Positions 3,730 through 29,435 are shown, counted from the first letter of the stretch. The stretch: DNA of 32,000 nt from an uncultured Lentisphaeria bacterium (GCA_951812855.1 OX638337.1:1740001-1772000); one strand, 5' to 3'. Notes: generated by a model not told the origin, from the sequence alone. Numbers and translations: made by a program.

Positions 3730-5016
3730 ATGAAAATTTTAGGTCTATCTGCATTTTATCATGATTCGGCTGCTGCATTGGTTGTCGATGGCGAAATAAT
3801 CGCAGCAGCACAGGAAGAACGTTTTACCCGGATTAAACATGATTCAGCCTTTCCGACACACGCAGTTCAATTCTGTTTTGACTATGGAAAGTGTGAGATA
3901 GAGAACATTGATTACGTGGTTTTTTATGATAAACCGCTGCTGAAATTCGACCGTTTGATCGAAACTTATGTTTCTTATGCACCCAGGGGATATAAATCTT
4001 TTATTAAGGCGATTCCAGTCTGGATGAAAGAAAAAATGCGTCTTCGGCATCAGATTAAAGAGGTTTTGGGTAAAATTAAAAATCCGATCGTTTTTACTGA
4101 ACATCATCAATCACATGCTGCAAGTGCATTTTTCCCATCACCGTATGATGAAACAGCTGTCATTACAGTTGACGGCGTCGGAGAGTGGGCGACTGCCAGT
4201 ATTGGGAAGGGGAGCGGTTCAGAATTATCGCTATTGCAAACGGAAAAATTTTACAGGAAAGAATTTTTGATAATATATGGATACAACCCGCCGCAGGGGA
4301 TGCCGGGGGGCACTCGGGGCAGCTTTGTTTGTCTGGTATCAATTGTTAAAAAACAAACGAGTCACCAACGGAAAAGATTGTCAAAAAGGAAGTTTATTGG
4401 GTCCTCGATATACAAATGATGATATGACTCATTTTTTAGACAGCAGGGATGTTCTTTATCATTCGATACGTGATGAAAATATTTTATTAGATAAAATTGT
4501 CGATGGAATGATTAATGGAAAAGTTGTCGGCTGCTTTAACGGCCGCATGGAATTTGGACCACGAGCATTGGGTGCCTGCAGTATTATTGGGGATGCCAGA
4601 AATACGACAATGCAATCAGTGATGAATCGAAAAAAGCCTTTAGTGATGAGGAAGAAAGACTTAATCAGGACTCAGATTTAAGAAAGAGAGTAAATTTAAA
4701 ACGGTCTACAATTCCTGCTGTTACACATGTCGATTATTCAGCAAGAGTTCAGACGGTGGATGAGGAACGCCATGGGCGTTATTACAGGCTTATAAAAAAA
4801 TTTAAGGAACAGACCGGCTGTCCCGTTATTATAAATACGAGTTTTAATATTAGAGGTGAGCCGATCGTTAATACTCCGGAAAATGCCTATAATTGTTTTA
4901 TGAAAACTGATATTGACATACTTGTATTAGAGGATAATATCATTTTTAAAGATGGACAGAAAAAAATTCAGGATTCAGAAATACAAGAGTATAGAAATGG
5001 ATTTCCTTTGGATTGA
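3730..5016 (+). pseudogene. NodU/CmcH-type carbamoyltransferase, inactivated by two internal deletions and a homopolymer frameshift
   Basis: ORF-track fragments 3718-4419, 4277-4681 and 4756-5016 read as one carbamoyltransferase. Frame 1 gives MKILGLSAFYHDSAAAL...HHQSHAASAF...DGVGEWAT. Frame 3 (4227-4310) gives ANGKILQERIFDNIWIQPAAGDAGG. Frame 2 gives ALGAALFVWYQLL...GRMEFGPRALGA...MQSVMN. Frame 1 then gives STIPAVTHVDYSARVQTV...INTSFNIRGEPIV. Frame changes occur at ~4222-4232, at the G6 run 4305-4310 and at ~4620-4630. Conserved blocks expected between the joined segments are absent. Confidence 0.85.
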
Positions 5017-5095
5017 TCTTTTTAAGTTGTGTTAAATGCAAATCAACCATCATTGATCGGCAATTAAGTTAAACCCTTTAGATAAAATCGCATAA

Positions 5096-5536
5096 ATGAT
5101 AAACCCGTTTGAAGAGATAAATTGGTCGCCGAACAAATTCGAAATTAAAGACTTTGGCAAGTCATTAATTATCGGAGGTGCTATTTTATTAACCTGTATG
5201 AGTTTGTATCGGACTTTTTTTATAACTGCAGGTCATGGCATAAAAATAGTTCAATTGGCGTTTGCCCTAATTCTCATTTTCGGTCTCATGGCGTATTTAT
5301 TGCCCGTTGTTTCAAAGCCTGTTTATTTAATTTGGTTTTTCATTGGTGCCTGTATTGGCACAGTTATTTCAAATCTTTTATTTCTTGCCTTCTATTATCT
5401 GTTTTTTTCTCCCATTGCATTTGTTGTCAGATTAAATGGAAGATATCCGCTAAAGATTAAGTCCAAAAATTGTGATTCTAATTGGGTTGATAAAGTCGGG
5501 AAACATGATGTAAAACGCTATTTCCGTCAATATTGA
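5096..5536 (+). CDS. Small multi-pass membrane protein, SxtJ-like (carbamoyltransferase-associated family)
   Basis: 146 aa with several hydrophobic helices and a basic C-terminus ending KRYFRQY. Its position directly after a carbamoyltransferase and before a DUF5989/SxtK-like remnant matches the sxtI-sxtJ-sxtK gene order. The family assignment rests on recollection of that family and on context, not on a search. Confidence 0.5.
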   Translation: MINPFEEINWSPNKFEIKDFGKSLIIGGAILLTCMSLYRTFFITAGHGIKIVQLAFALILIFGLMAYLLPVVSKPVYLIWFFIGACIGTVISNLLFLAFYYLFFSPIAFVVRLNGRYPLKIKSKNCDSNWVDKVGKHDVKRYFRQY

Positions 5537-5617
5537 GGTGAATTTTTGATGGGTCTGTTAATCATCTTTAGTGGTTCTTCGGCTGCACCGTTTATCTAAA
5601 CTCTGTTCATAGGTTAA
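5537..5617 (+). pseudogene. Remnant of a DUF5989/SxtK-like small membrane protein gene
   Basis: Reads GEFLMGLLIIFSGSSAAPFI-TAA(5597-5599)-TLF. As I recall, this family of ~50 aa proteins ends in ...GS.A.APFIYTLF, so the Tyr codon is now TAA and the N-terminal half is missing. Confidence 0.4.
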
Positions 5618-5622
5618 TAATA

Positions 5623-7038
5623 ATGAAATTACATCAGCGAATATTTTTAGGAATGGGAATCGGTCTGATTTTCGGCCTTATCCTGTTAACATGTTTTGAC
5701 CATCAGTCTGATTTATTTAATACGATTATTTGGTGGTTGAATCTTTTTGGCAAAGATACGTTTATCGCTTTGTTAAAGATGATTATTGCACCATTGATTT
5801 TTAGTTCTATTGTTGCGGGGATTACCAGCTTGCCGAATATGAAGGAATTGGGGGCAATTGGTGTTAAAGTGTTTGGGTTTTATTTCATCACAACAACCCT
5901 TGCTGTTGCAATTGGTTTAGCAGCAGTTCTTTATATTAAACCCGGGAAAAAGGACGCTTCAAATAAGATTCGTGAACAGCGGGTTACCCAACTAAACACC
6001 CATAGAGAAAATTATCGTAGAGTAATAAATAACCAGGATCCTTTCGCACCGGAACATCTGCCTGGATATCTGCGTTATATTGCTTCTGCAGAAGGGACAG
6101 AAATCACACAGTCGAATCTTGAATCAAAATGGCAGCATATCAAAGCCAAGAAGGATTTAAGTGCTGGAGACATGTTTAAGAAAGATATCTTATCGCCTCT
6201 GATGATGAACCCGTTTCATGCGTTGTCACAGTCACCGCCAAATTCATTAGGAATTATATTTTTTGCAGTTTTACTGGGTTTGGCATGTATGGCTGTCGGA
6301 AAATCATCTGAGCCCGTTGTCCAGTTCTTTGTTGCACTTGCAGACGTCATGATGAAGGTTACTCTATGGGTCATGGAGTTTGCCCCCATTGCTCTGGGTT
6401 GTATTATCGCTTCCTTAGTTGCAACGTTGGGAGTCGATGCACTGACATCGCTTGGTTGGTATTGTATAACTGTCGTCTTTGGTATTGGAATCCATATCAT
6501 CATTTTGTTAATGATTGTCAGTGTATTTGGAAAAACGTCACCATTGACATTTATGAAAGGTATTCGAACTGCCTGGTTAATTGCTTTTTCCACAACATCC
6601 TCCGCAGCAACGTTACCTGTAACTTTGGAATGTGTGGTTGATAATCTTAACATTTCGCCTAAGATCGCAAATTTTAATTTGCCGATTGGTGCAACCATGA
6701 ATATGGACGGCACGGCTTTATATGAAGGTGTTGCAATAATTTTTTTGATTCAAATTTATGGAGGGCTCGATGATGTGCCGGTTGTCTTAACTGCAGGTAA
6801 AACTTTTGTTATTTTTATCACCGCTGTTCTTGCATCAATCGGTGCTGCAGCAATACCCAGTGCTGGTTTAGTAACGATGGCCATTGTGGCTTCGGCAGTT
6901 GGACTGCCGCTCTATTATATCTTTTTGATCTATGCGGTTGATCATTTACTGGATATGTTTCGAACATCTACAAATGTATTAAGCGATGCTGCCTGTGCAG
7001 TGGTCATAAATCGATTTGAAGGGCATCGTTTAGAATAA
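5623..7038 (+). CDS. Dicarboxylate/amino acid:cation symporter (DAACS/GltP family)
   Basis: 471 aa polytopic membrane protein with family blocks SSSAATLPVT and GATMNMDGTALYEGVAIIFLIQ. A ~90 aa hydrophilic insert follows the third hydrophobic segment. Confidence 0.9.
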   Translation: MKLHQRIFLGMGIGLIFGLILLTCFDHQSDLFNTIIWWLNLFGKDTFIALLKMIIAPLIFSSIVAGITSLPNMKELGAIGVKVFGFYFITTTLAVAIGLAAVLYIKPGKKDASNKIREQRVTQLNTHRENYRRVINNQDPFAPEHLPGYLRYIASAEGTEITQSNLESKWQHIKAKKDLSAGDMFKKDILSPLMMNPFHALSQSPPNSLGIIFFAVLLGLACMAVGKSSEPVVQFFVALADVMMKVTLWVMEFAPIALGCIIASLVATLGVDALTSLGWYCITVVFGIGIHIIILLMIVSVFGKTSPLTFMKGIRTAWLIAFSTTSSAATLPVTLECVVDNLNISPKIANFNLPIGATMNMDGTALYEGVAIIFLIQIYGGLDDVPVVLTAGKTFVIFITAVLASIGAAAIPSAGLVTMAIVASAVGLPLYYIFLIYAVDHLLDMFRTSTNVLSDAACAVVINRFEGHRLE

Positions 7039-7330
7039 CGAAAAATATTGAGGGAATAAAGCACGGCAAGGCGTTGATATTTTACGAAAACGACAACAAA
7101 AAAACGGATGCAATATTTAATAACGGCTGTCTTTGGCGGATTCATGATGTAGGATCGAAATGGAAATCAAACAGCTAACGGCAGTTATAAAGACGGCCAG
7201 TCATGGGATGGACGATTTATTTCAATTAATGAATCGCAGCAAAGAGTTGAATTTAATAAATACAAAAATGGAAAATTAATTAAATAAAATTTTCTTCCTA
7301 TGTATCTCGGCTAAAAATTAAGGCTGTGGT

Positions 7331-8152: not shown

Positions 8153-8155
8153 GTT

Positions 8156-9280: not shown

Positions 9281-9483
9281 GGTTTACTATCGGATCAATT
9301 TCACTCTCTGCGTTAATGATTTCAGTAAATTAACACTTATTTTTTTGTAGTAAAGACCGACATTAGTTTGATATGAATGAATCTATTTTATTTTGAGCCG
9401 GGGGCCGTTGATTATTCTGATTAGAAGACCAGGTTGTGGATTCTGCCCATATACATGGAACAAACTGAGTCAGGCTATGGAAA

Positions 9484-9836
9484 ATGAAAAAAACACGGAA
9501 TAAATTCAAACCTCCTGCATTGCTGTTATTCACCTATTCAGTGATGGATTTACTGTTGGCTCAGGTTTATAATGTATTTTTCGATGTGTCCCCAGAACCA
9601 TTTTATAGAACTGAATCAAACGTTTACAGTTATGATTTAATTCCAAACTGTTTGAAGCATTTGGCAAAAAAGGATTATTAAAATCAAAACAGTATATGGA
9701 TAATTTATACGCCTTGTTGCAAATACATAATATTGACCTGACAATTGCCGTGTATCCCCGGCCTGATCATATTTATTATAATGATTTAGAATCGATTCAG
9801 GTAAAATTCTGGGAAAAATGGGTGGAGAAAAGGTGA
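9484..9836 (+). pseudogene. Possible remnant of an SGNH/GDSL-like hydrolase gene (N- and C-terminal pieces only)
   Basis: Frame 1 (9484-9681) gives MKKTRNKFKPPALLLF...FYRTESNVYSYDLIPNCLK, an N-terminal anchor plus the first conserved stretch. Frame 3 (9696-9836) gives MDNLYALLQIHNIDLTIAVYPRPDHIYYNDLESIQVKFWEKWVEKR, which resembles the C-terminal ...VYPWP.Q.......S.Q..FW block of that family. The catalytic middle is absent. Assignment is from memory and tentative. Confidence 0.35.
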
Positions 9837-9971
9837 TGAAAGATCAGTTCACATTGTGCTGCAGGAATCGAAAAGCTGGGTTTGTCGTAATATGTTAACA
9901 GACAATTTACGAAAAGCAGACATGGCTGTCGAAGCCGTATTAAAACGAGTCTTAAATATCAGAGATAATTA

Positions 9972-11357: not shown

Positions 11358-11362
11358 AAATA

Positions 11363-11461: not shown

Positions 11462-12103
11462 TTAGTCGGCATTCAGTGTTGCTATTTCAAAATCCCCGGT
11501 ATCATTTTCTAATAACGCCGTTGCCGTTACCGGCTTTTCCAGGTTTGCAAAAACACCGCCATTAATGCTGTATCGGCAGGTTGAAATGGCTGAATCAGAA
11601 TCAAAAGAGTTGTCGTATTGAGCGGATCCCGGTGTAATATGTTCATAGGTAGCCACATAATAGGCGTCTCCATCTGTCAGATCAAATTCTTTAACATAAA
11701 TCGATTGCTTTGTAACGATACCGAGGAAGCCTTTACTTGAAATCTTATTAACAACTCCGGCAATCCGGGGAGTATCACGTGTGTCATGCTCGAAATCCAT
11801 TGAATTTAATACCGTGACCAGGGCATCCCGGACGGGGAATCCTTTTTCAATATTCAGTGTGATATAATCTGTGTGGATCCCATTACTGACAATTCCATAT
11901 TCATTGACGGTTTTAAGACAGTTATAGGCAATGAACGGATTCTTTTTAATATCGTCTTCAAATCCTTCCTTAGGTAATATTGCAACATTCGTGTCAATTA
12001 TTTTGGCTTCCCGGTTTGGGAATGATCGGGATGATACACGATACATTGCACCTGTTTTTCCACTTTTTGTTTTAGCAACGGCTACAATTCGTCCCACATA
12101 CAT
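11462..12103 (-). CDS. purO: IMP cyclohydrolase, archaeal PurO type
   Basis: 213 aa starting MYVGRIVAVAKTKSGKTGAMYRVSSRSFPNREA, with NPFIAYNC, VSNGIHTD and TPRIAG. It is collinear with archaeal PurO proteins (MYLGRI...YRVSSRSFPNR). Confidence 0.9.
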   Translation of the reverse strand: MYVGRIVAVAKTKSGKTGAMYRVSSRSFPNREAKIIDTNVAILPKEGFEDDIKKNPFIAYNCLKTVNEYGIVSNGIHTDYITLNIEKGFPVRDALVTVLNSMDFEHDTRDTPRIAGVVNKISSKGFLGIVTKQSIYVKEFDLTDGDAYYVATYEHITPGSAQYDNSFDSDSAISTCRYSINGGVFANLEKPVTATALLENDTGDFEIATLNAD

Positions 12104-12112
12104 GATGATTTC

Positions 12113-12568
12113 CTATTTTTTATTGGTTATGATTTTGTTGAGGTTTTCCCAGATTTCCTGATCTTGAATTGATCGAATATCCGGTATAAAACCAAATTGA
12201 TAATATAAGTTAATTGCCGGTAATCTGATACTCAGCGTTGTCAAATAAGCCTGATTATGATTAAATACTCTTAGTCGGTTGCAAATGCACGATAATAGTG
12301 ATTTAAATAATCCGATTCCCTGCATTTCAGGTGCAATAAGATAACATTGCCGCTGCTTCAGTAATTCAATATCAGAACCGAATATCTTTCTGAATAAATT
12401 AAGAGAAATATTATTAAAATCATCTGCTTGTTTATGAATGGATACCCAGTGTTCTTCATCACCTTCTTTATACCATTGAATTGTGTATCGGGCTGGTGGT
12501 TCATAATCCGGCAGATCATCCAGATCAGTTCTAATCATAGAAATGGGAATCAAATGATCATTTGTCAT
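12113..12568 (-). CDS. GNAT-family N-acetyltransferase, unusually short core (possible in-frame deletion)
   Basis: 151 aa with acetyl-CoA motif A MQGIGLFKSLL and C-terminal AINLYYQFGF. The segment between the N-terminal helices and motif A (CYLIAPEMQG) looks too short to hold the usual beta2-beta4 strands. Confidence 0.55.
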   Translation of the reverse strand: MTNDHLIPISMIRTDLDDLPDYEPPARYTIQWYKEGDEEHWVSIHKQADDFNNISLNLFRKIFGSDIELLKQRQCYLIAPEMQGIGLFKSLLSCICNRLRVFNHNQAYLTTLSIRLPAINLYYQFGFIPDIRSIQDQEIWENLNKIITNKK

Positions 12569-12571: not shown

Positions 12572-14869
12572 TCAATATTCGCTTATACGATTTCCGTTCA
12601 TTAATATTTCTAACGACTTTGGGGCCACAGGTAACCAATTAGAGTAATCACACATGGACCGAGAAGTTATATATTTATGGTGTAACATATTCAAGTGTGA
12701 TATTAGCCTTGACCTTAATAAAATATCCTTCATCGGGTTTAAAGGTATCAAAATGATTAGTCGCACCGGCACCTGAAACGAAGCTTTCCTGTTTCCCAAT
12801 GATTTTTCGATTTGGTTTATAACGCTACTCCCAATAACATCAGTAATTGATTTTTCTTCATTGAGAATGTATCCCACATGACTCCAGCCTGACTCCAGCC
12901 TGACTCCAGTGGTATCTCAAAATTTGACACATTGCCAACTAAATTGCCTGAAATTTCAAAATTGGTCGCTACTGCATTCATTTTTAACCAATACCCCTGA
13001 CCCAGTGTCAGGCTTGACAGGGTGTTTAATGAATCGGGTAAATCCGGATTAAAATGTTGATTTTGCCAATAATTTGTTCCAGTTTTTTGTCGGAGCTATG
13101 AAGCTGGAAAATACAGTTCTCGGAGATGCATCTGCCGGTATGACATTTAGTGATATCTGATTCCAACCGGCAATGAGATTAAATGACTGTGTTCTTGCAA
13201 CAGTAACATTAATAGTTCGTAAATCTGTTAGACAAGCAGCACCATTATTTTCCGTTACGGTAACGTGTACGGTGTAAATGTTATTGTTATCAGTGTCAGC
13301 GGGATTTGTAAAATCCGGAGTTGTACTAAACGTCAACGCACCCGTATCGGGTTCCAGAGAGAACGCATCCTGATCTAATCCGCCGGTAATTGAATAAGTA
13401 ACTGAATCACCTTCTTGGTCGGTACTTGTAACTGTTGTCACTGTTGTCTGATTCTCAGAAACTGAGATACCGCCGATATCCCCGCCGTCATTGCTCTGTA
13501 CCTAAAATCAAGAAAATAATCGCCAGATGCATTTGCAGCAAGCAGGAATCCAGGAGATTCTAATGCTGCTTTGGAATTATATCCATGATGTCCACCCGTA
13601 CCGGTCATCCAGTTTTTAGCTCCCTCTATCGTCGCTCCATCACCAGAAAAATTACCTGTTGTTCCTGCTCCCCAGAGCCATTTTCCCACACTGAGTCCTG
13701 ACATAATAAACGAATAAAATCCACCGTCATCTGCATTGAAATCGTTTGAATACGGAATGGTGGGCTCGGCAAGTACTTTGATTGTAACCATCTTCGATAA
13801 GTTGGAGTCGCCGTTAATCGTGAGCTTTGCAACAAAGTCACCGGTCGTCGTATAGGTATGTACAGGATTTTTCTCAGTTGAATCCGGGGTGCCGTCATTA
13901 TTAAAATCGCATGACCAGGACGCAGCCATTACTGAAAAATCTTCAAATTGCAGCGGTCGGTTGGCAAACCAGACTTCATGAACATGAAAACTGGCAGTCA
14001 CAGCAGCTGTTCCGAGTGACCACCCCAGGTCCTCTATCAAACCAAGGGTTATACAGCTCCGGGGGAATGAACAGACTCTGTCATTGCCAGTGTCGGAGCC
14101 ATTAGGGAATTGGCTCGATTATTTCCGAATGTCACACCTTGATGTGGATCCCAATGGAATAGGTTGAACCTTGTTTGAATGGATTTGGAGCATATAATTG
14201 GGGTTTTGTCCCATTAAAACCTGCAGTGGCTTTTCTGCCATTGCAAAAGAGTCTGTTACTTTCAAGTGCATTTTTTAATTCAACAGAATCTATGGCGATA
14301 TTTGTAATTGCAGTTATAGTGCCAGGACGATCAATAAGTTCAGTGAATGTATCATAAATAAGTGGTACCTCACGTCGAGTTCCTTTGTCTCTTGCTTCAT
14401 TAAGTTCACCTGGACCGGAAAATCCCAACCCATGACACAGCTCATGAAGCACGACGGAAACAAAATCGTATTGACCTGCCGGCGTTATGCCATCTATACC
14501 GAAATACCAGGAAAAACGACTATTTATGGTTGCTTCAATATCCGCCAAACCTGGACGCAGATCATAACCCGAAATTTTATTTGCCAGGGCAATGGGGTAT
14601 GAAACACCAGCTGCAGCTCCCGGGAACCCCTGCACTGACGTTGTTGCAAAAGCAAATGCTAACGTACTGGTATTAGGCTGCCGCTCGTCGTCTGTCAATG
14701 TTTCACAAAACCCTGTGGTGGTGGAACGCGTGTGAATACATTTTTATAAACCTGCCTTTAATCCTTTTTGATGGTTATGATTTTCCTCTGCATTGCCTGT
14801 AATAATAATCATTGCAAGACCAGGAAAAAGAACCGGATAAATCCATTTGAAAAGCAATGTTGTTTTCAT
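12572..14869 (-). pseudogene. Large secreted/surface protein (HExxH metallopeptidase-like + PKD + cadherin-like + C-terminal beta repeats), heavily disrupted
   Basis: ATG at 14869 opens a signal-like MKTTLLFKWIYPVLFPGLAMIIITG, followed by an in-frame TAA at 14744-14746. Domain blocks: VLHELCHGLGF (HExxH at 14432-14446); PKD-like WSCDFNNDGTPDSTEKNPVHTYTTTGDFVAKLTING; cadherin-like DQEGDSVTYSITGGLDQDAFSLEPDTGALTFSTTPDFTNPADTDNNNIYTV; and C-terminal GWNQISL / GQGYWLKMN / ESGWS / DEGYFIKVKA repeats. Continuity needs frame changes near 14150-14165, 14061-14075 (G5 run), 13495-13505, 13049-13100, the 11-bp duplication at 12879-12909 and 12785-12800. There is also a TAA at 12675-12677. ORF-track pieces 14132-14698, 13438-14040, 13049-13441 and 12572-12877 all belong to it. 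Confidence 0.8.
12879..12909. repeat. 11-bp tandem repeat tgactccagcc x2.8 inside the surface-protein pseudogene
   Basis: Read directly: unit at 12879-12889 and 12890-12900, partial unit at 12901-12909. Removing one unit joins ...EIPLESGWS to HVGYILNEEKSITDV... in a single frame. Confidence 0.9.
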
Positions 14870-14914: not shown

Positions 14915-15230
14915 TTAAATTGTATAATTATTAACATAACCTGTTGTTTTGAAATGAGTAATAAGTATATAATTAACTCCCGAATTTCGAATAATAAATT
15001 CAGGCAAATTGTTAAGTACTCTTTGTTGGACATTGAAGCTGATAAAATTGCTGAAATTACAAATATAAGTCATTAATTCCCAGGAAGCATAGCAACGGGA
15101 ATAAATCTGGGATTTTGAATTATGTTCCTTCAACCTTCTTTCCATATCAACAGTGTATCCCACATAAATTTTTTCTGGAGAATTGATACTGCGAAAAATA
15201 TATACATGAAAATTTTGAATATGTTTATTT
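14915..15230 (-). CDS. GIY-YIG nuclease-domain protein, possibly degraded (no in-frame ATG before the GIY motif)
   Basis: In-frame translation FHVYIFRSINSPEKIYVGYTVDMERRLKEHNSKSQIYSR...SWELM carries the GIY (VYIF) and YIG (YVGYT) elements and RL.EHN. The nearest ATG (MYIFF...) is one base out of frame. The C-terminal half does not resemble the family. The ORF track only calls 14915-15163 from a GTG. Confidence 0.55.
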
Positions 15231-15323
15231 CCCGTGTAAAATTGTAATCCGGGCTTTGGATTCAGTTTGAACCGGCGAAGCCAAACGTAGTCAGGAAGAC
15301 TCTTTGGGTCTGAAGACGAAGTC

Positions 15324-15415
<92 letters not shown>

Positions 15416-15738: not shown

Positions 15739-15996
15739 TTATCGATAAACATCTTTTCGATGGCTGACTTTCAAGATGATAACGGTTAAAATATCATCTT
15801 TGATCTGTGTAACCGGACGGTAATTTCCTAATCGACAGTGCCATAACCCTTTCAGCGTTCCTCTTAACTCTTTTCCCTGACTTCGGGGATCAATAAATTG
15901 TAAGGATTTTAGAAATTCTCTAATCCGAATTTGAGTAGGCTGATTCAGCTTAAGAATCTGTTTAACAACTTTTTTCTTGATTTCTATTTTATACAT
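15739..15996 (-). CDS. Type II toxin, RelE/ParE (StbE) family
   Basis: 85 aa: MYKIEIKKKVVKQILKL...LRGTLKGLWHCRLGNYRPVTQIKDDILTVIILKVSHRKDVYR. This is the typical RelE pattern (L.G.L.G.W..R.G.YR......D....V.....HRK.VY). It overlaps the upstream antitoxin gene by 8 nt. Confidence 0.85.
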   Translation of the reverse strand: MYKIEIKKKVVKQILKLNQPTQIRIREFLKSLQFIDPRSQGKELRGTLKGLWHCRLGNYRPVTQIKDDILTVIILKVSHRKDVYR

Positions 15997-16231
15997 GTTT
16001 CAGGAACTCGTCCAGGCTCACTGTTTGATCTTCCTGTTTGTCCAGTTCTTCAAGAGCATCGACAGCATCCAAATAATCTTCAATCTCTTCGAGATATTCT
16101 GCTATTGCTGTCCTCATGATGTCGGATTGCTTGCGTTTAGCTCGCTTTGCGATTGATTTCAAATGACATTCAAGCTCTTCATCCATTCTTAGTGTAATCA
16201 ATGTAATTTCTCCTTTTATATACAAATGCAA
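15989..16231 (-). CDS. Type II antitoxin, ribbon-helix-helix (CopG/RelB-like)
   Basis: ITLRMDEELECHLKSIAKRAKRKQSDIMRTAIAEYLEEIEDY is an RHH fold pattern with an acidic C-terminal tail. The likely true start is the TTG at 16201, 8 nt after an AAAGGAG Shine-Dalgarno, giving ~70 aa rather than the 80 aa of the track. Confidence 0.8.
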   Translation of the reverse strand: MHLYIKGEITLITLRMDEELECHLKSIAKRAKRKQSDIMRTAIAEYLEEIEDYLDAVDALEELDKQEDQTVSLDEFLKHV

Positions 16232-16630
16232 TACAAGAGCAGGAAATGGTCAATCTCGTGCGTTTAAATCGGGATCAACCGGGATACTCTATTAGATCCC
16301 ATCCTTCGGCAAGAGATAAATCAAATGTCTGTATTCAGTTGATTAACGGCCATGTTGAATTTATAGAATTAGTCCGGTTGGCTGACAGATGATGAAATTG
16401 TAATGCAGAAAAATTTGAGTCTTGCTGATTTGACTGATTATAAATCGTACAATTTCTTGCATTGAGACAGTATTGATCATTCTAAAATAAAGACAGTTCA
16501 CCTGTAAAAATCCGTCGCTATTCTCAAAAATAAGATTTGTTGTGGATAACCTATAATCTTTGACTTGCTGATTAGAGCATTACCGTTTAAACCTGGCACA
16601 TTTGGCAGTAACTCATATTGGGATTGGTTA

Positions 16631-21667: not shown

Positions 21668-23161
21668 ATGATTTCATTCCAAGAATTTAAACTGATAGCA
21701 GCTGATTATAATGTCATACCACTGGTAAGAGAAATACTGGCAGATACAGAAACGCCAATTTCTATGGCAGCTAAATTGGAGATTCAGGAAAAGTATTTCC
21801 TTCTGGAAAGTGTCGAAGGCGGAGAATATTGGGGTCGATATTCAGTACTTGGTTTCAATATCTCTAAAGAATTTATCATCAAAAATGGAGAGGCTGCGAT
21901 TCTGTCAAATGGAAATGAAGAGTACATAAAAGGTAACCCGGTTGACGCATTGAATACCTATCTTACCGGCTTCAATCCACAGCAACCTTCAAATCTTCCC
22001 CGTTTTTTTGGCGGTGCAGTCGGGTATTTTTCTTTTGAAACGGTACGTTTTTTTGAGCGATGCGGTGAGACGAAATCATGCAGTGAAAATTTTCCGGACG
22101 CCTGTTTTATGATTGTTGATCAGGTTGCAGTTTTTGACAATATTAACAAATCCGTTAAGCTGATTTCATGTGTACATATTGATGATCACACGGATTTAGA
22201 AGATGCCTATCAAGACGGATTGGACACACTCGATGAGATTGAATCAATTCTGTCAGGAGACAGTAAAGCAGACGATTTGTCTAACGATTTTACCCGGAAT
22301 GGTAACATTGAGATGAAATCAAATATGACCAGAGAAGACTATCAGTCGATTGTCAGTAAAGCAAAAAAATACATCTGCGACGGTGATATAATCCAGGTCG
22401 TTTTGGCACAACATTTTGAATCAACAATATCGGCATCTCATCTGGATGTGTATCGAGCATTACGTTTCATTAACCCGTCTCCGTACCTTTATTATATAAA
22501 ACTGGATCGTCATCGTGCAATCGCAGGTTCGTCTCCCGAAGTCATGGTCCGAGTGATGAATTCGAACGCAGAAATTCGGCCGATTGCCGGAACCTGTCCA
22601 CGCGGCAATAGTAAAGAAGAAGATGAAAAATTTGCCAATGATCTGCTGAATGATTCAAAAGAACAGGCTGAACACGTTATGCTTGTAGACCTTGCAAGAA
22701 ATGATTTAGGTCGGGTCTCTGAAATTGGCAGTGTTACTGTTAAAGATTACATGTTTATTGAGAAATACTCTCATGTTATGCATTTGGTGTCACAGGTGGA
22801 AAGTACTATAGATGATTCTTACAACGCGTTGGATGTGCTGAAATCTACATTCCCGGCCGGTACGTTATCCGGAGCTCCGAAAGTAAGAGCCATGGAGATT
22901 ATTAACGAACTGGAGCCTGTTGTCCGAGGCCCATACGGTGGGGCAATAGGTTATATCAGTTATGGTGGAAAAATTATGGACATGGCAATTACAATTCGTA
23001 CCGTCATCATGAATAAAGACAAAGCAACGGTTACAGCAGGAGCTGGAATTGTCTATGACAGTATTCCCGAAAAGGAGTACGATGAAACAATTCATAAGAG
23101 TAATGGTATGTGCAGAGCCCTGGAATTGGCAGAAAATAAATTAAAATTGGGAAACGTTTAG
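21668..23161 (+). CDS. trpE: Anthranilate synthase component I
   Basis: 497 aa with the Trp-feedback motif FLLESVEGGEYWGRYSVLGF, then PAGTLSGAPKVRAMEIINELEPVVRGPYGGAIGY. Confidence 0.95.
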   Translation: MISFQEFKLIAADYNVIPLVREILADTETPISMAAKLEIQEKYFLLESVEGGEYWGRYSVLGFNISKEFIIKNGEAAILSNGNEEYIKGNPVDALNTYLTGFNPQQPSNLPRFFGGAVGYFSFETVRFFERCGETKSCSENFPDACFMIVDQVAVFDNINKSVKLISCVHIDDHTDLEDAYQDGLDTLDEIESILSGDSKADDLSNDFTRNGNIEMKSNMTREDYQSIVSKAKKYICDGDIIQVVLAQHFESTISASHLDVYRALRFINPSPYLYYIKLDRHRAIAGSSPEVMVRVMNSNAEIRPIAGTCPRGNSKEEDEKFANDLLNDSKEQAEHVMLVDLARNDLGRVSEIGSVTVKDYMFIEKYSHVMHLVSQVESTIDDSYNALDVLKSTFPAGTLSGAPKVRAMEIINELEPVVRGPYGGAIGYISYGGKIMDMAITIRTVIMNKDKATVTAGAGIVYDSIPEKEYDETIHKSNGMCRALELAENKLKLGNV

Positions 23162-23162
23162 T

Positions 23163-23732
23163 ATGATTGTTATGATTGACAATTATGACTCCTTCACCTA
23201 TAACCTGGTTCAGGAAATGGGTAAACTCGGGGCTGCAATTGAAGTATATCGTAATGATACCATTAGTATTTCTGAACTGGAAGAGTTGAAACCGAAGGCA
23301 ATAATAATTTCACCTGGCCCCTGCACTCCAACTGAGGCGGGTATAAGTATTGAAGTAATCTTAAACTATTCAGGGAAACTGCCGCTGCTGGGTGTTTGTC
23401 TGGGGCATCAATCGATCATCCAGGCATTTGGGGGTGCCATAATTCATGCAAATCATATCATGCACGGAAAAACCTCAGAGGTAAGCCATGACGGCACCGG
23501 ATTATTCAGGAACATGACCAATCCACTCATCGCCGGCCGGTATCATTCACTTGTCGGTGATCGACAAACATTACCCGAATGTTTAGAAGTTACAGCTGAA
23601 TCTGATGACGGTGAGATTATGGCAATAAAGCATAAGGAGCATTCCACCCTGGGAGTTCAATTTCATCCCGAATCCGTACTCACACCGGACGGTAACATTT
23701 TAATGCAGAATTTTATCGACATGATTGCCTGA
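23163..23732 (+). CDS. trpG: Anthranilate synthase component II (glutamine amidotransferase, TrpG/PabA)
   Basis: 189 aa: MIVMIDNYDSFTYNLVQ, SPGPCTP, GVCLGHQSI and QFHPES. It starts 1 nt after the trpE stop. Confidence 0.9.
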   Translation: MIVMIDNYDSFTYNLVQEMGKLGAAIEVYRNDTISISELEELKPKAIIISPGPCTPTEAGISIEVILNYSGKLPLLGVCLGHQSIIQAFGGAIIHANHIMHGKTSEVSHDGTGLFRNMTNPLIAGRYHSLVGDRQTLPECLEVTAESDDGEIMAIKHKEHSTLGVQFHPESVLTPDGNILMQNFIDMIA

Positions 23733-23759
23733 TTTAATACTGCAGTTTAGGTGAAGACG

Positions 23760-24368
23760 ATGAAAATAAAAATATGTGGTATAACCAATATACCTGACGC
23801 AAAATGTGTTGCCGATAATGCCGCTGATATGATAGGATTTATCTTCTACAATAAATCACCGCGATATGTTCCACCTGAAACAGTTAAAGAAATAACAGGA
23901 AAGATTCCTGACGATTTTAATACCGTTGGTGTCTTTGTAAACGAACCCAACTCAACAATGATAGAAATCGGCGATTATTGTGGACTGAAAACATTACAAC
24001 TGCATGGTCATGAGTCCGCGGAACAAGTCGACCGGATTCGTGGATTCAATATCATCAAAGCACTGCCGATGAACGAATCCAAAGATCTTGACGTGATTTC
24101 TGATTTCAAAAAATACACCGTCTTAATTGATACCTATGGAAAAAGTTTTGGTGGAACTGGACACACCATTAACTGGGACCTTGCTCATCGTGCTGCAAAA
24201 TCTGGAAACGTAATGTTAGCCGGCGGACTGACTCCGGAAAATATTAAAACGGCGGTTCAAACCGTTGCTCCCTGCGGAGTTGATGTTTCGTCGGGTGTTG
24301 AAACATCGAAAGGTATTAAGGACCACGCTAAAATAAAAATGTTTATTGAAAATATTCGTGACTTATAA
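23760..24368 (+). CDS. trpF: Phosphoribosylanthranilate isomerase
   Basis: MKIKICGITNIPDA...GFIFYNKSPRYV...LQLHGHES...AGGLTPENI...GVDVSSGVE. ATG at 23760 is preferred over the in-frame GTG at 23751 used by the track. Confidence 0.9.
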   Translation: MKIKICGITNIPDAKCVADNAADMIGFIFYNKSPRYVPPETVKEITGKIPDDFNTVGVFVNEPNSTMIEIGDYCGLKTLQLHGHESAEQVDRIRGFNIIKALPMNESKDLDVISDFKKYTVLIDTYGKSFGGTGHTINWDLAHRAAKSGNVMLAGGLTPENIKTAVQTVAPCGVDVSSGVETSKGIKDHAKIKMFIENIRDL

Positions 24369-24494
24369 ATTATGCTGTTGATTTTTGATGAAACGTTTTT
24401 ATAGTTAGCCGTTATCTTTTTTAAAGGCAGTTTTAGTTTCTGACTGATTCGATCTGCCTGAAAAACATCATGAAAATTATTTTGGAGTACCATT

Positions 24495-24758: not shown

Positions 24759-24846
24759 TTGTTCATTTTATCGTGAATTAATTAACCCATTGAATTCCCG
24801 GTAATATCGAATTCAAATCTGAGATTTCGAACTACCATCTTTCCAT

Positions 24847-24920
24847 GGCGGGTTAGCTCAGTTGGTTAGAGCAGTGGAATCATAATCCACGTGTCCGGGG
24901 TTCGAATCCCTGACCCGCTA
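24847..24920 (+). tRNA. tRNA with CAU anticodon (elongator Met or lysidine-modified Ile2), no encoded CCA
   Basis: GGCGGGTTAGCTCAGTTGGTTAGAGCAGTGGAATCATAATCCACGTGTCCGGGGTTCGAATCCCTGACCCGCTA. D-arm is GCTC/GAGC. Anticodon stem is GTGGA/TCCAC with loop ATCATAA. The T-loop is TTCGAAT. Position 1-72 is a G-U pair. Confidence 0.9.
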
Positions 24921-25229
24921 TTTAACCTCTTACCAAATTGATATTGCATACAACTGGCACTTTCATTTCATGGATTATAACAGCCATACCGATAGAAAAA
25001 ATGGCCCCCTTTAATTTTAAAATTATTCCCATTATAAATCTCCCCAATGCATAGAAAATGTTATATCCCTATTTCGCAAAGGCGGATTCAACAGAGAAGT
25101 GCAATTCCTTCAAGGTAATTTATTACCATATCGACGCGATGCGATGCCTGCATACGACGATGCATGATTTCTATTCTGCCATTGTTTTAATTAATATTAT
25201 ACTAACCAAACCGGCAGAATTGATTTTTG

Positions 25230-25731
25230 CTAAGGAATTGAATTCCTAATCTCACAAATTTTAATAAACGCCTCTTTTAACTTCGTGACATTGATTGGTT
25301 TTGAAAATATAATCATCCACCCTGGCTTCTATAGATAGCTCTTTATCATCCTTCAGTGTATTGGCTGTCATGGCAATAATGTTTGGTTTCTCCTCTTTTG
25401 AATAGGTCTTACAGATTTTTTCATGGCTTCAAGACCATCCATTTCGGGCATTTGCATATCCATCAGAATCACCTCACAGGGTTGACGCTCTAACGCCTGA
25501 ATAACGTCAATACCGTAGGAAAAACATAGCAAAACTTATTTTCCAGAAGATCCTCAATTCTTATCCTTGACAATGGGAATAACAGTCTCCTTATTTTCTT
25601 TAAGCTCAAGTAGAATCTGCGACTTCTCTTTGTTGTAATCTTCCAGAGAAATGTTATTTCCCATGAATTTAGATTCAAGTTGTGCTAATTTAGCATAAGA
25701 CGGTATACTCATTTTGTTTCCTAAATTTAAT
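25230..25731 (-). pseudogene. Response-regulator receiver-domain gene, multiply frameshifted
   Basis: ATG at 25731 gives MSIPSYAKLAQLESKF...ETVIPIVKDKN, then TGA (25554-25556). Receiver blocks continue in shifting frames: [10 protein letters not shown]; [34 protein letters not shown]; after the T6 run 25416-25421, [37 protein letters not shown]; then KPINVTKLKEAFIKI to a TAG at 25230-25232. Confidence 0.7.
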
Positions 25732-25934
25732 TTCAGAAAAGTCGATCTGACTCCAATCCATAAAATTTGCTATTTTCAATTGGTTCTGATGCCATGAAAG
25801 CGTCATATATTCATGGGTAATTAAGTGACGATTATTTTATTATCACAGACTGCTGTCTCAATTAAGGCTGTACAGTATTGTACAAATTTTCATATCATTT
25901 GGTAATAGGCAGAGTTATTTTAAAGTAGATAAAA

Positions 25935-26444
25935 TTGGTCATGACACTCAATTCTGTTGCATTATCATTAGGCAGTAATTTAGGTGATAAGCAAAAAAAT
26001 ATAAACACAGCACTCGACTTGCTATCCGATAAGATATTAATTGATCTCCGTTATTCTGACTATTTCAGCTCAAAAGCATTTGATTTTCCAATTCAAGCCT
26101 ATGATTTCTTAAATATTGCGGTGACCGGAAAAACCTCTTTATCACCTTTAGATCTATTAACGTGTTGCCAGGAAATTGAGGTCATGCTAAGACGGCCCCG
26201 AAATCATGGATTTCGAGAAAATAGAACCATCGACATTGATATTATTTTATTTAATAATCTAAACATTGAGACGCCGGTTCTCACCATTCCTCATCCAAAA
26301 ATGTTCCATCGGGATTTTGTACTGATTCCTCTTGCAGAAGTTGCACCGGACTGGAAAGTTCCACCTTCAGAGGAATCGGTTTCATATTTTTTAGCTGAGT
26401 ATAATAAAGCCAAACCTGAAAGGCAGTCCCCTAATACAATTTAA
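25935..26444 (+). CDS. folK: 2-amino-4-hydroxy-6-hydroxymethyldihydropteridine diphosphokinase (HPPK)
   Basis: VALSLGSNLGDK...NRTIDIDIILFNN...LTIPHPKMFHRDFVLIPLAEVAPDW. The start may be the ATG at 25941. Confidence 0.9.
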   Translation: MVMTLNSVALSLGSNLGDKQKNINTALDLLSDKILIDLRYSDYFSSKAFDFPIQAYDFLNIAVTGKTSLSPLDLLTCCQEIEVMLRRPRNHGFRENRTIDIDIILFNNLNIETPVLTIPHPKMFHRDFVLIPLAEVAPDWKVPPSEESVSYFLAEYNKAKPERQSPNTI

Positions 26445-26798
26445 TTGCTGATGAATTCGCCCCTTTATACCGATGGGGGTAAAGGGGAGTGTGTAAAAAT
26501 AATGAAAAAAAGACATAGTCTGATTCCGGGAAAGAAAAATGACATCAATAAATTCTACAAAGGATCAAAAATATTAAGTTATAATCGCTGCTCCAGCATG
26601 CTGCAGGTTAGCCATATAAGCGGGATTGAAAATTTTTGGGGTGTTGCCAAATCCAGATTATCTAAGTTTAGAGGCGTTCATAAAAACACATTTTATTTAT
26701 ATTTGAAAGAGTGTAAATTCAGGTTTAATCATCGTAACCGAAATATCTATCTAAAGCTAATGAAGTTTCCGGCAGCAGGCCTACAAGGTATTTGCTAA
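26445..26798 (+). mobile_element. C-terminal fragment of an IS1595-family (ISXO2-like) transposase gene
   Basis: SHISGIENFWGVAKSRLSKFRGVHKNTFYLYLKECKFRFNHRNRN matches the conserved IS1595 C-terminal block (I.GIE.FW...K.RL.KF.G.....F.L.LKECE.RFN.R). The N-terminal ~2/3 of the transposase is absent. It abuts the folK stop. Confidence 0.7.
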
Positions 26799-27003
26799 AA
26801 ATTTAATAATATTTGTGCTGAATGTAATTTATGATATTTTTTTACTTGATTCGCAATTTCATCACTTGCATATTGTCCAACGATATTCTTCGCATAGCAG
26901 CCACCAGTCCGGAAGGAACCGCTCCAAAGCTATTTTTAAACTTCGGGATGCAATGTTAAATATCACATCAATAATCGTATCAGTTTTTTAAAAACTTAGA
27001 ATT

Positions 27004-27468
27004 ATGAAATCAATCATTAAAATTTTCAAATTAAGTTTAATAACAACACTTATAATGACATTTGGCATTCTAATTAAATTGTCATTTACCCAAGGGCTGG
27101 CAAACGTTTATCAACTTCGATCTCAATCCGACACAAAAGATATTGACAGTAAAATAAATCTGATAATAAAAGCTCTGATCCAAGAACCCGATAACGCAGA
27201 ATTGCATGAGTTATTAGGTAAATTGTATTTTGATAAATCATCACAAACTACAGTTGACAAATCAAAATTTTTAAAAAATGCAATTATTTCATTCCAAAAT
27301 GCTATTCAATTAAATCCAACAAATTATAAATATCATTTATTCCTGGCCAACAGCACATTTAAACTTGATAATGATTCCGAAAAATTCATTCGTAAACTTA
27401 ATATGATTAACAAATTGGATCCCCATAACGAGATCATTTCTAATTATAGAAATCAGTTTGACTTATAA
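27004..27468 (+). CDS. Small TPR-like repeat protein with N-terminal signal/anchor
   Basis: 154 aa with a hydrophobic N-terminus and TPR-like helical pairs (NAELHELLGKLYFDK..., AIISFQNAIQLNPTNYKYHLFLANS). The function is unknown. Confidence 0.55.
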   Translation: MKSIIKIFKLSLITTLIMTFGILIKLSFTQGLANVYQLRSQSDTKDIDSKINLIIKALIQEPDNAELHELLGKLYFDKSSQTTVDKSKFLKNAIISFQNAIQLNPTNYKYHLFLANSTFKLDNDSEKFIRKLNMINKLDPHNEIISNYRNQFDL

Positions 27469-27601
27469 ATATTAACGTCGACCATGTGAATTTATTATAA
27501 CGATAAACAGCCTTGGTTCAACGTTACCTTTCCCCTTAAAACCAGCCCGTTTTGAAATAGATTCCTCAATACTAAATTATAGTAACAAAGGAGGACATAT
27601 A

Positions 27602-27725
27602 CTGAAACGGGTTACAGATGAGCAGATAATCGGGATATTAAAAGAAGGTGAATCAGACGTTTCGGTTCAGAGATATACTTCGTAAACATGGAATAGCTGA
27701 AGGTACCTGTTATCGCCGGAGTTGT
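27602..27725 (+). mobile_element. Remnant of an IS3-family orfA (HTH transposase N-terminus), frameshifted and truncated
   Basis: After an AAGGAGG site, CTG-KRVTDEQIIGILKEGESDVSVQ is followed after a frameshift by DILRKHGIAEGTCYRR. This is collinear with IS3 OrfA (..F..EQI..ILKE.E.G..V.ELCRKHGIS..TFY.WR). There is no ATG, no orfB and no recognisable ends. Confidence 0.6.
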
Positions 27726-27863
27726 GGGCTGTTTGCACTTAATCGGCAGCAGCATTCAATAAATAGACAGCATAATAAGTGAGACTTAGAATACAAGACA
27801 GTTACAATTACAGTGTTGCATATTCTAATCAATTTTAAATTCCGGGAACAGGAGAAGATAATA

Positions 27864-28493
27864 ATGATTTCGGCACTGGAAGCACTCGAACGGCTGCAAG
27901 AAGGAAATCGTCGCTTTATAGACGAGGATTGCTGTAACGAATCTATTACCCGTCAGGAACGGCGAATTGAATTAAGCGGGGGACAGGAACCGTTTGCCAT
28001 CATTCTGGGCTGTTCAGATTCCAGAGTTCCAGCTGAGATTGTTTTTGACCAGGGTTTAGGAGATCTGTTTGTCATACGTGTTGCCGGGAATATTGTTACG
28101 CCCCCACAAATTGGGAGCATTGAATATGCTGCAGAGGGTTTTGGTACCCGGCTTGTTGTTATTCTAGGGCACTCCGGATGCGGTGCGGTTTTGGCAACTC
28201 TGGAGGAACTTCAGCAGAATAAAAAACATAATTCGTGTCATATTTGTTCAATTATCGATCAAATTCGGCCTTCTATAGAACACTTATTGACCACTGAACT
28301 TGTGAATGATCAAGAGGCGTTAATGCACCATTCCGTTCGTGCAAATATACGTGCTGCTGCAAACCGACTTCGACATGAATCAACAGTTCTGCAGCGGTTG
28401 ATTCAGAACAATGGTCTCCTTATAATGGGAGCAGAATATTCATTGGAGACAGGTTTAGTAGATTTCTTTAAGGGTTTACCGGAAAACGATTAG
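27864..28493 (+). CDS. Beta-class carbonic anhydrase
   Basis: MISALEALERLQEGNRRF...ILGCSDSRVPAEIVFDQGLGDLFVIRVAGN...LGHSGCGAV carries the zinc ligands C, H, C and the D-R dyad. ATG at 27864, with AGGAGA 8 nt upstream, is preferred over the upstream start at 27813 used by the track. Confidence 0.9.
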   Translation: MISALEALERLQEGNRRFIDEDCCNESITRQERRIELSGGQEPFAIILGCSDSRVPAEIVFDQGLGDLFVIRVAGNIVTPPQIGSIEYAAEGFGTRLVVILGHSGCGAVLATLEELQQNKKHNSCHICSIIDQIRPSIEHLLTTELVNDQEALMHHSVRANIRAAANRLRHESTVLQRLIQNNGLLIMGAEYSLETGLVDFFKGLPEND

Positions 28494-28501
28494 TTATCTA
28501 T

Positions 28502-28910
28502 TCATGATTTTCGCTTTGGAAAATGTCTAATTTTTATCTGAAAATTTTCTAACTTATTTTTTCTTTTTTCTGACAGTGAATTATAAATATCTCCGGTGTT
28601 ATCCCGATATTGATCGTTTCCCTCTATAGCTTTTCAAATCGCTTTTTTTCGTTCTTTCGGCATGGCCTTGCAAACTTCAACAGCTCTTCCTTTATACTGT
28701 TTGCAGAATGATTCAAGAGAATCTAAAAACTGATCTCCTTCCCGGCAGTTTACATTGGAATTTTTTATAGATCGTATGTAAAACCCGGCAGCGGGTTGCT
28801 ACAGCAAAAATAACAACAAATGAAGGGGTTGAGCGAATTGTACTTTTTTGTGTTCCACAAATGAATGCGACTTTTCCAGTTAAGAATAACAAAACCAAAT
28901 AACTAACCAT
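28502..28910 (-). pseudogene. Possible decayed gene for a small secreted protein of unknown family
   Basis: ATG at 28910 gives a signal-like MVSYLVLLFLTGKVAFICG. After a frame change near 28800 the best-looking reading is QPAAGFYIRSIKNSNVNCREGDQFLDSLESFCKQYKGRAVEVCKAMPKERKKAI-TGA(28634-28636)-KAIEGNDQYRDNTGDIYNSLSEKRKNKLENF..., ending at 28502. Confidence 0.35.
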
Positions 28911-28966
28911 GGTTGTCGATGTTACAAATAAAAAATGGAATTTAAAATTATTGCAAATTCGACACT

Positions 28967-29435
28967 TTAGTGATGATACCGATGTCCTTCAATAATCGTG
29001 AATGTCCGATAAATCTGCTCAAGTAGAATCAAGCGGACCGATTGATGTGGAAACGTCATCAACGACAGGCTTAATAAATTTGCATTGTTAAATCTTTTTA
29101 TATCAATTCCACAGGCACCGCCAATGAATGAAGTTAACTCGACCATGCTGACTGATTTTCAGTGAATCTAAACAATCTGTAAATTTTGTCGAATTAAATT
29201 GTTTAACCGTTTCAGTTAATAATATCACGTAATCTTTATTGTTAAGATTATCCAGTATCTGTTGTATTTCTTTAAAGCGGGTTTGGTCTGTTGAATTGGG
29301 TATGGCAATTGGTTTCAATTCCATACCCAATTCAACAGGTGCGAACTTTTCAATGCGTCTTTTATAGCCATCGATATTAGTTTTTAAGTAAGAGTCCCGA
29401 GTTTTACCAATCTAAATAAATCGGATTTTATACAT
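28967..29435 (-). pseudogene. rlmH: 23S rRNA (pseudouridine1915-N3)-methyltransferase RlmH, inactivated by nonsense codon and frameshift
   Basis: ATG at 29435 gives MYKIRFI-TAG(29412-29414)-IGKTRDSYLKTNIDGYKRRIEKF...KDYVILLTETVKQFNSTKFTDCL...GRVNFI. The frame changes at 29121-29132 (ttcattcattgg). It then reads [55 protein letters not shown] (28967-28969). This is full-length collinearity with the SPOUT RlmH family. Confidence 0.8.

Follow-up and report, generated by a model that had tools for sequence, protein, structure and literature searches.

We analyzed a 32-kb window from an uncultured Lentisphaeria bacterium (GCA_951812855.1, OX638337.1:1740001-1772000; "the window" denotes this whole stretch of 32,000 nucleotides) and found that between roughly one quarter and one third of its gene-sized loci are truly broken and stand among intact core genes. 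Ten decayed loci have independent support: a carbamoyltransferase, an SxtK-like protein, a MORN-repeat lipoprotein, a GNAT acetyltransferase, a WbqC-like protein, a secreted surface protein, a GIY-YIG protein, a response-regulator receiver, the tail of an IS1595-family insertion sequence (IS), and rlmH. With 23 intact protein genes and two tRNA genes in the same window, the central claim of an earlier reading made from the sequence alone (here, the original prediction), namely that decayed genes lie densely beside intact core metabolism, was borne out. The decayed share is ∼30% in the window (10 supported pseudogenes versus 23 intact genes) and ∼25% when the reachable flanks are added; in free-living bacteria, the pseudogene fraction is typically 1 to 5%. 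Intact coding sequence occupies 63.7% of the window DNA, recognized pseudogenes 18.8%, and other sequence 17.4%. At a probability of roughly three in four, we read these data as a lineage that is losing genes it does not need, with relaxed selection on accessory genes, purifying selection on the core, and a process that is still running. Read in this way, the window is a clear yet ordinary example of a shrinking genome.

Losses fall on accessory genes while core biosynthesis is kept

The broken loci encode accessory, surface, signaling, and mobile functions, and core biosynthesis genes were kept, as had been predicted. Intact orthologues for comparison came from two related genomes, in which the gene copies read across the breaks seen in the window; comparison with orthologous loci had been proposed as a check on the decay. 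The closest species-level genome, as judged by ThrC, is "Verrucomicrobia bacterium OFTM167" (locus L006; 80% amino acid identity, with Lentisphaerales next at 60%). The ratio of nonsynonymous to synonymous substitution rates (dN/dS) against OFTM167 was 0.03 to 0.07 for HisF, HisH, FabI, DctP, ThrC, and PurO, values that point to core genes kept under purifying selection. Full-length matches in Pfam or NCBIfam were obtained for HisF, HisH, the SDF transporter, FabI, the TRAP component DctP, ThrC, PurO, a ParE/ribbon-helix-helix (RHH) pair, MurJ, the CCA-adding enzyme, a VWA protein, TrpE, TrpG, TrpF, S15, HPPK, a TPR protein, a beta-carbonic anhydrase, and Asd, and for the start of ValS. The his, thr, asd, trp, folK, purO, murJ, cca, rpsO, valS, and fabI genes had been described as full length, and they are: seven gene products match their OFTM167 orthologues in length to within one residue, and the others are covered in full by Pfam or NCBIfam models.

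Lesions were of several kinds, with stops, frameshifts, deletions, and the gain of a repeat unit all mapped, in agreement with the heterogeneity noted in the original prediction. The deletions measure 422, 130, 169, ∼281, ∼105, and 1+1 bp and the insertions 1, 2, 11, and 1 bp. At the mapped lesions, at least 1.2 kb was lost versus ∼15 bp gained, a clear deletion bias.

Two co-occurring strains reveal older and newer lesions

A second strain of the same organism was present in ENA metagenome assembly ERZ18545485 as the primary contig ptg000035c (1,941,460 bp). Two loci from this contig were joined into a 34.6-kb sister-strain sequence, which was aligned to the window; the two are 99.4% identical (range, 99.2 to 99.6%). 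Three alternate contigs ("atg" names) of the same assembly match the window at 100% identity, and the window's ThrC protein is also found on an NCBI contig of 1,947,381 bp.

Lesions common to both strains comprise the 130-bp deletion in the carbamoyltransferase gene, the TAA in the SxtK-like remnant, the surface-protein frameshifts, the receiver indels, and the TAG in rlmH. The sister strain alone has a frameshift in the ClpX-like gene, a stop (TGA) at 4562, and a nested deletion of 130 bp; restricted to the window strain are a 1-bp loss at 4309 and a 1-bp gain at 29126. The strains further differ in the copy number of an 11-bp repeat, in a 9-bp deletion at 13431, and in a 143-bp deletion upstream of murJ. 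Single-nucleotide polymorphisms (SNPs) between the strains reach 8.3 per kb in pseudogenes versus 2.6 per kb in intact genes, a 3.2-fold excess (Fisher p=1e-8), and indels number seven in pseudogenes versus a single one in 20 kb of intact genes, this one being the ClpX-like frameshift. The SNPs in intact genes were 31 synonymous and 22 nonsynonymous. The decay therefore has an age structure, with older lesions common to the strains and newer ones strain specific, and it is ongoing.

One recent case is the ClpX-like AAA ATPase, which is intact in the window strain and falls under the ClpX family cutoff. Expansion of (AG)2 to (AG)3 at 509 frameshifts the sister-strain copy, which looks like a newly made pseudogene.

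Damage mapped at each locus

Six-frame translations, with X in place of stops, were used for family searches; coordinates of all features are collected in Table 1.

The intact orthologue of the carbamoyltransferase in OFTM167 has 616 residues (L006 2149-3996). Relative to it, the window gene has lost ∼422 bp after 4231, 1 bp at ∼4309, and 130 bp at 4632/4633, so that the Pfam domains Carbam_trans_N and Carbam_trans_C are spread across three open reading frames (ORFs). In the sister strain, the first deletion is larger and nested (4144-4273 is missing), and a CGA>TGA change creates the stop at 4562. The homopolymer shift predicted at 4305-4310 corresponds to the 1-bp loss beside the G run at ∼4309 and occurs in the window strain only. 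Removal of conserved blocks by internal deletion had likewise been predicted; it was found in this gene (∼422 and 130 bp), in the core of the GNAT protein (∼35 residues), and in the surface protein. Downstream, the SxtK-like gene survives as a C-terminal remnant in which the predicted in-frame TAA at 5597-5599 replaces a Tyr codon of OFTM167: the window reads "MGLLIIFSGSSAAPFI*TLF", and the OFTM167 counterpart reads "...SGSSAAPFIYTLF" (the L006 SxtK-like ORF at 4556-4822 finishes "...LLGLLIVFSGSSAAPFIYTLF"). Between the two remnants, the SxtJ-like ORF is an orphan from a dead three-gene cassette. It remains open, its Pfam SxtJ match is under the cutoff, its dN/dS against OFTM167 (0.115) is the highest among seven orthologue pairs, and three of its five inter-strain SNPs are nonsynonymous.

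Decay is most extensive between 12.1 and 15.25 kb. The GNAT ORF is open and matches no family in Pfam or NCBIfam; its reference in OFTM167 (L006 12765-13160) matches Acetyltransf_1. The OFTM167 GNAT gene itself looks damaged. Next to it, we identified a locus absent from the original list, a C-terminal remnant of a WbqC-like gene (∼12572-12700) that keeps only "...PKSLEILMNGNRISEY" and has been fused by a deletion onto the tail of the surface-protein pseudogene. WbqC is intact in OFTM167 (236 residues; Pfam E value, 1.5e-66).

The surface-protein pseudogene begins with a hydrophobic, signal-peptide-like N terminus, followed by a zinc-metalloprotease-like domain (HELCHGLGF), PKD, and cadherin (the last two detected with Pfam). 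DNA alignment to an orthologue at L172 (JAAHTH010018498.1, 320-2815, from a Mycale hentscheli sponge metagenome) placed a 1-bp G insertion at ∼14753 and deletions of 18 and 151 bp at ∼14700. The stop predicted at 14744 is present (14746-14744) but is not a simple nonsense mutation, arising instead from the insertion at ∼14753. Nor does a run of five C residues at 14061-14065 cause the frameshift assigned to it: the actual lesion is a 2-bp TA insertion at ∼14053, accompanied by a 1-bp deletion at ∼14157, and homologues P0001 and P0007 read across both. A further ∼95 residues are missing after ∼13486, and more frameshifts lie near 13049. The 11-bp tandem duplication that had been noticed is the unit GGAGTCAGGCT, duplicated at 12879-12900, with one further copy in the sister strain. 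The L172 orthologue is itself split, with an in-frame TAG where the window has Gln and a stop lying ahead of a further domain repeat, a case of parallel decay in a relative. The adjoining GIY-YIG gene has no ATG, GTG, or TTG at the N terminus of the family; the domain is recognizable over its first two thirds only, and NCBIfam returned only a weak N-terminal match.

The remaining supported loci are scattered. Tblastn with the 127-residue OFTM167 ORF detected a lipoprotein remnant that has lost ∼50 N-terminal residues and carries a frameshift at ∼7133-7135 and a stop in place of a Trp codon; in OFTM167, the gene is intact, and its product matches MORN_2 in Pfam. An SGNH identity considered for this locus (7041-7284) was rejected on the MORN_2 match of the orthologue. 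The receiver pseudogene contains TGA at 25556-25554, TAA at 25538-25536, and frameshifts at the A run 25421-25416, where a shift had been predicted, and near 25300. Its indels are identical in the sister strain, and the stitched sequence matches histidine-kinase receiver domains (3c97_A; E value, 3e-13). The IS1595 remnant matched NCBIfam NF033547 at positions 171-215 of 215 (E value, 5.7e-10, under the cutoff), with a weak match to Pfam DDE_Tnp_IS1595. Finally, the rlmH pseudogene has the predicted TAG at codon 8 (29412-29410), also present in the sister strain, and the 1-bp insertion at ∼29126, absent from it; the stitched protein aligns over its whole length with solved RlmH structures (1to0_A, residues 3-158; E value, 1e-22).

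Of the roughly ten loci in the original list, the carbamoyltransferase, SxtK-like remnant, surface protein, receiver, rlmH, IS1595, GIY-YIG, and GNAT entries stood, and the SGNH-like, small secreted-protein, and IS3 entries did not. No match was found in Pfam (with six-frame translations), by tblastn against plasmids, or in a search of 5.8 billion proteins for the SGNH-like candidate (9484-9681), the IS3 candidate (∼27560-27720), or the small secreted candidate (28500-28880), and these loci therefore remain unsupported. A stop predicted at 28634 does exist (28636-28634), but the putative gene around it matched no homologue in these searches. DNA similarity to OFTM167 ends at 9358 and returns at 9961, within the spacer that probably holds the SGNH-like candidate. 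The three candidates may be remnants eroded past recognition or plain spacer DNA. Two spacers of ∼700 bp (30504-31222, asd-valS; 9281-9971, dctP-thrC) gave no ORF or family match and may likewise be genes eroded past recognition.

Table 1. Positions and state of decayed loci, candidates, and selected other features (window coordinates).
Feature	Position	Strand	Evidence or state
ClpX-like AAA ATPase	303-1892	+	529 aa; intact in window strain
Carbamoyltransferase pseudogene	3730-5016	+	DNA alignment to L006 orthologue and sister strain
SxtJ-like ORF	5096-5536	+	Open, 146 aa; length equals L006 orthologue
SxtK-like remnant	5550-5608	+	C-terminal ∼20 codons only
MORN-repeat lipoprotein remnant	7041-7284	+	tblastn with L006 ORF (6710-7093); matches in two frames
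Spacer, no supported gene	9281-9971		690 bp; probable site of SGNH-like candidate (ORF 9484-9681)
GNAT acetyltransferase	12113-12568	-	ORF open; ∼35 core residues missing in frame
WbqC-like remnant	∼12572-12700	-	C-terminal part only
Surface-protein pseudogene (secreted zinc-metalloprotease-like HELCHGLGF/PKD/cadherin)	12701-14869	-	2.2 kb
Degenerate GIY-YIG gene	14915-15250	-	Pfam GIY-YIG, 32 bits; profile positions 2-57 of 78
tRNA-Ser	15324-15415		Beside ParE/RHH pair
Response-regulator receiver pseudogene	25230-25600	-	Pfam Response_reg, 36 bits on one frame fragment
IS1595-family transposase remnant	26445-26798	+	Last ∼45 domain residues only
IS3 fragment candidate	27560-27720	+	Unconfirmed; resembles IS3 OrfA helix-turn-helix by eye only
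Small secreted protein candidate	28500-28880	-	Unconfirmed; stop at 28636-28634
rlmH pseudogene	28967-29435	-	Pfam SPOUT_MTase, 109 bits over two frames
LpxB, PtsP, GlnA, QueG, BatA	Upstream flank		Full length
ValS	Downstream flank		Starts in window; complete in sister strain

Relatives carry losses of their own, and the genome is small and AT shifted

Named relatives of ValS are mostly Lentisphaerae or Lentisphaeria (60 to 64% identity). On the basis of these and the ThrC matches, the organism is an uncultured member of the Planctomycetota-Verrucomicrobiota-Chlamydiota (PVC) group, most likely with affinity to Lentisphaerota. OFTM167 keeps the carbamoyltransferase cassette, WbqC, the response regulator, and the MORN protein, and its SDF transporter gene is reduced to a 108-bp stub. 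Two related lineages, OFTM167 and the sponge-metagenome source of L172, carry independent losses. In OFTM167, the stretch with the SDF stub and the response-regulator gene is flanked by two near-identical repeats of ∼170 bp (L006 4954-5120 and 6529-6695), which may have played a part in the rearrangement at the stub.

The genome is smaller and more AT-rich than those of relatives. Its G+C (GC) content in the window is 38%, close to that of OFTM167 (37%), and relatives L007, L038, and L091 have 45 to 50%; the contigs measure 1.94 and 1.95 Mb versus 4.43 Mb for the chromosome of Kiritimatiellota B12222. The best outside matches of Asd (85%) and of the surface protein both lie in JAAHTH, a Mycale hentscheli sponge metagenome (PMC7196800). 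The best Asd relative, L091, is only 1.5 kb long, and its flanks are unrelated. Among 80 metagenome loci from the Asd scan, none was syntenic with the second half of the window, and so the scan yielded no outgroup for the rlmH, receiver, and IS region.

P0113 and P0114, the closest ValS relatives at 68% identity, are encoded on 1.63- and 1.43-Mb ENA contigs that belong to other long-read assemblies. L173, a ValS relative on a linear 1.63-Mb contig, is not syntenic with the window. Other small genomes may exist in the clade.

Gene loss under relaxed selection is the most probable of the readings considered

According to the favored reading, selection would have been relaxed on the carbamoyltransferase cassette, the surface protein, GNAT, WbqC, the lipoprotein, the receiver, rlmH, and old IS copies, and inactivating mutations in them would become fixed. 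Each gene would first acquire a stop or frameshift and next accumulate substitutions at the neutral rate. Dead genes would then be eroded by deletions, some between short direct repeats and some through slippage at short repeats, and would end as mere fragments or spacers. Core biosynthesis and housekeeping genes would meanwhile be held by purifying selection. As the underlying cause, we infer that a host-restricted lifestyle, with a sponge as the possible host, keeps the effective population size small. The wider interpretation in the original prediction, early-to-middle host restriction or strong drift, is thus supported in part. Host restriction of this organism is plausible, and the JAAHTH matches hint at an animal-associated clade, bearing on relatives rather than on the sampled organism itself.

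Several observations weigh against this reading. The reachable flanks (8.3 kb upstream and 3.5 kb downstream of the window) are ∼85% coding, consist of full-length genes, and contain no obvious pseudogenes; the coding figure of 64% for the window may therefore overstate the genome-wide effect by departing from the genome average. No intact insertion sequence or transposase was found in 44 kb, and an early-stage IS bloom is not evident in the window; the only IS traces in those 44 kb are one eroded IS1595 tail and the unconfirmed IS3-like trace. The link to sponges comes from two short contigs that are more GC-rich (45%) and belong to a relative, not to the window organism. Contig names follow the hifiasm style, in which we take the "c" suffix of ptg000035c to mean circular, and the circularity and completeness of this contig are read solely from its name.

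The alternative that survives best accepts the decay as real and attributes it to drift, or to a change of niche, in a bacterium that is free-living or only loosely tied to a host. No host information was available for the sample, TRAP and SDF transporters, MurJ, and full amino acid pathways are retained in the window, and purifying selection on the core genes is strong, all of which would suit such an organism. However, small free-living genomes are usually gene-dense with few pseudogenes, a pattern for which PMC9600693 cites McCutcheon and Moran (2011). The nearest outside matches, moreover, lie in a sponge metagenome, and related PVC symbionts of sponges show the same syndrome (PMC9600693; bioRxiv 10.1101/2024.12.29.630706). 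We consider this alternative unlikely, at about one chance in five.

Slightly less probable still is a local hotspot, in which the window would happen to take in a small number of decaying accessory patches or islands (one by tRNA-Ser) within a genome whose pseudogene load is ordinary. The dense, intact flanks (LpxB, PtsP, GlnA, QueG, and BatA on one side and ValS on the other) fit this idea, as does the largest decayed block (12.1-15.25 kb), which adjoins tRNA-Ser and the ParE/RHH pair. Yet decayed loci occupy at least six separate sites over 26 kb and are mixed with core genes, and rlmH is a housekeeping gene rather than island cargo. The independent losses in related lineages and the small, AT-shifted genome likewise speak for a process wider than one locus. 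We also considered a recent tRNA-linked island and rejected it, since the PurO-GNAT-WbqC order is ancestral, being common to OFTM167.

It is very improbable that the stops and frameshifts are false ones, introduced by errors of assembly or consensus calling in the long-read metagenome data. Some lesions do lie by short homopolymers or repeats (the G run at ∼4309, the A run at 25416-25421, and the 11-bp repeat), but the damage consists mostly of 130- to 422-bp deletions, substitution stops, and missing gene halves. Most lesions are common to two separately assembled haplotypes, with three alternate contigs identical to the window throughout, and such errors would not explain the 3.2-fold SNP excess in pseudogenes; 20 kb of intact genes contain a single indel. 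Least credible of all is that the genes still function, whether by recoding, by programmed frameshifting, or by phase variation of repeat tracts. The strains do differ in how many copies of the 11-bp unit they have and in the (AG)n tract of the ClpX-like gene. However, each of the three stop codons terminates conserved intact genes (TAA in 12, TGA in 5, and TAG in 5), which argues against recoding. The tracts are just two to three units long, and every affected gene has more than one unrelated lesion, with catalytic or core blocks among the parts lost, which argues against phase variation.

Comparison with known systems and significance

A pseudogene-rich, shrinking genome has precedents among PVC symbionts of sponges. 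"Candidatus Thermopylae lasonolidus," a Verrucomicrobiota symbiont of the sponge Forcepia, has a genome of ∼5 Mb and 53% GC in which ∼16% of ORFs are pseudogenes and coding density without pseudogenes is ∼72%, interpreted as early genome reduction after host restriction (PMC9600693). Our organism resembles it in belonging to the PVC group, in the many pseudogenes and low coding density of the window, and in keeping primary metabolism. It differs in size and composition (∼1.94 Mb, 38% GC) and in phylum-level lineage, and no biosynthetic gene cluster was seen in the window; the smaller size and lower GC content suggest a later stage. A second case is "Candidatus Synechomycale tutelaris," an Opitutaceae symbiont of Mycale nullarosette with a closed 2.53-Mb genome that its authors describe as shrinking via pseudogene formation (bioRxiv 10.1101/2024.12.29.630706). 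The likeness lies in a small PVC genome and the formation of pseudogenes; the closed genome and the Mycale host belong to that system. Decay there is attributed to mobile elements, of which 291 genes are present, and the genome has lost many core pathways; here we found eroded IS remnants only, and the window's core pathways are intact. "Candidatus Patea custodiens," a Kiritimatiellota symbiont from Mycale hentscheli, has a 3.1-Mb genome (PMC7157528, PMC7196800). It too belongs to the PVC group, and the metagenome of its sponge, JAAHTH, has the closest outside matches to two window loci; unlike the genome studied here, its genome is 3.1 Mb in size, and genome reduction is not reported in the passages of these sources that we consulted.

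Further afield, Mycobacterium leprae, Sodalis glossinidius, and Serratia symbiotica have transitional genomes. Low coding density (in the window), mixed lesions, deletion bias, loss of surface, regulatory, and mobile genes, and retention of biosynthesis are features in common with them; the phylum differs, and probably the host type, and our figures cover the window only. A full-text literature search found no paper on a pseudogene-rich Lentisphaerae symbiont.

A more specific proposal is that of an undescribed invertebrate-associated (possibly sponge-associated) Lentisphaerota-like clade, caught in mid-stage reduction at ∼1.9 Mb, in which this species, OFTM167, and the Mycale hentscheli relative would each be eroding the same ancestral gene set independently. 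We hold it tentatively, at somewhat less than even odds. If it is true, the co-resident strains, which differ within one sample by fresh inactivating mutations, would record the successive stages of gene death, beginning with the first hit and ending in a spacer, as a natural time series. Should the organism prove to live as a symbiont of animals, Lentisphaerota-like bacteria would join the marine-invertebrate symbionts known to have reduced genomes.

The mechanism is a textbook one and nothing about it is new; the value lies in a clean example with long-read haplotypes from a little-studied PVC lineage. Since older lesions are shared, newer ones are strain specific, and two outgroups have different losses of the same genes, one can measure directly in which order and how fast genes die and what the spectrum of deletions is. 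For annotation, many of the short ORFs called here represent gene fragments and deserve a pseudogene label.

Other features of the window

The trpE, trpG, and trpF genes lie side by side at 21668-24368 (+), with trpD, trpC, trpB, and trpA outside the window. PurO, an archaeal-type inosine monophosphate cyclohydrolase (11462-12103, -), scored 210 bits against an NCBIfam equivalog cutoff of 150 and is kept in OFTM167 (L006 11610-12251). It may replace the cyclohydrolase activity of PurH, which would be unusual in bacteria.

A ParE toxin/RHH antitoxin pair (15739-16231, -) is intact in both strains amid the most decayed stretch. The 143-bp segment upstream of murJ that is missing from the sister strain (16432-16574) is edged by short direct repeats (GCTGATT.G) and has no other copy in the fetched DNA; its loss is as expected for deletion by slippage or illegitimate recombination.

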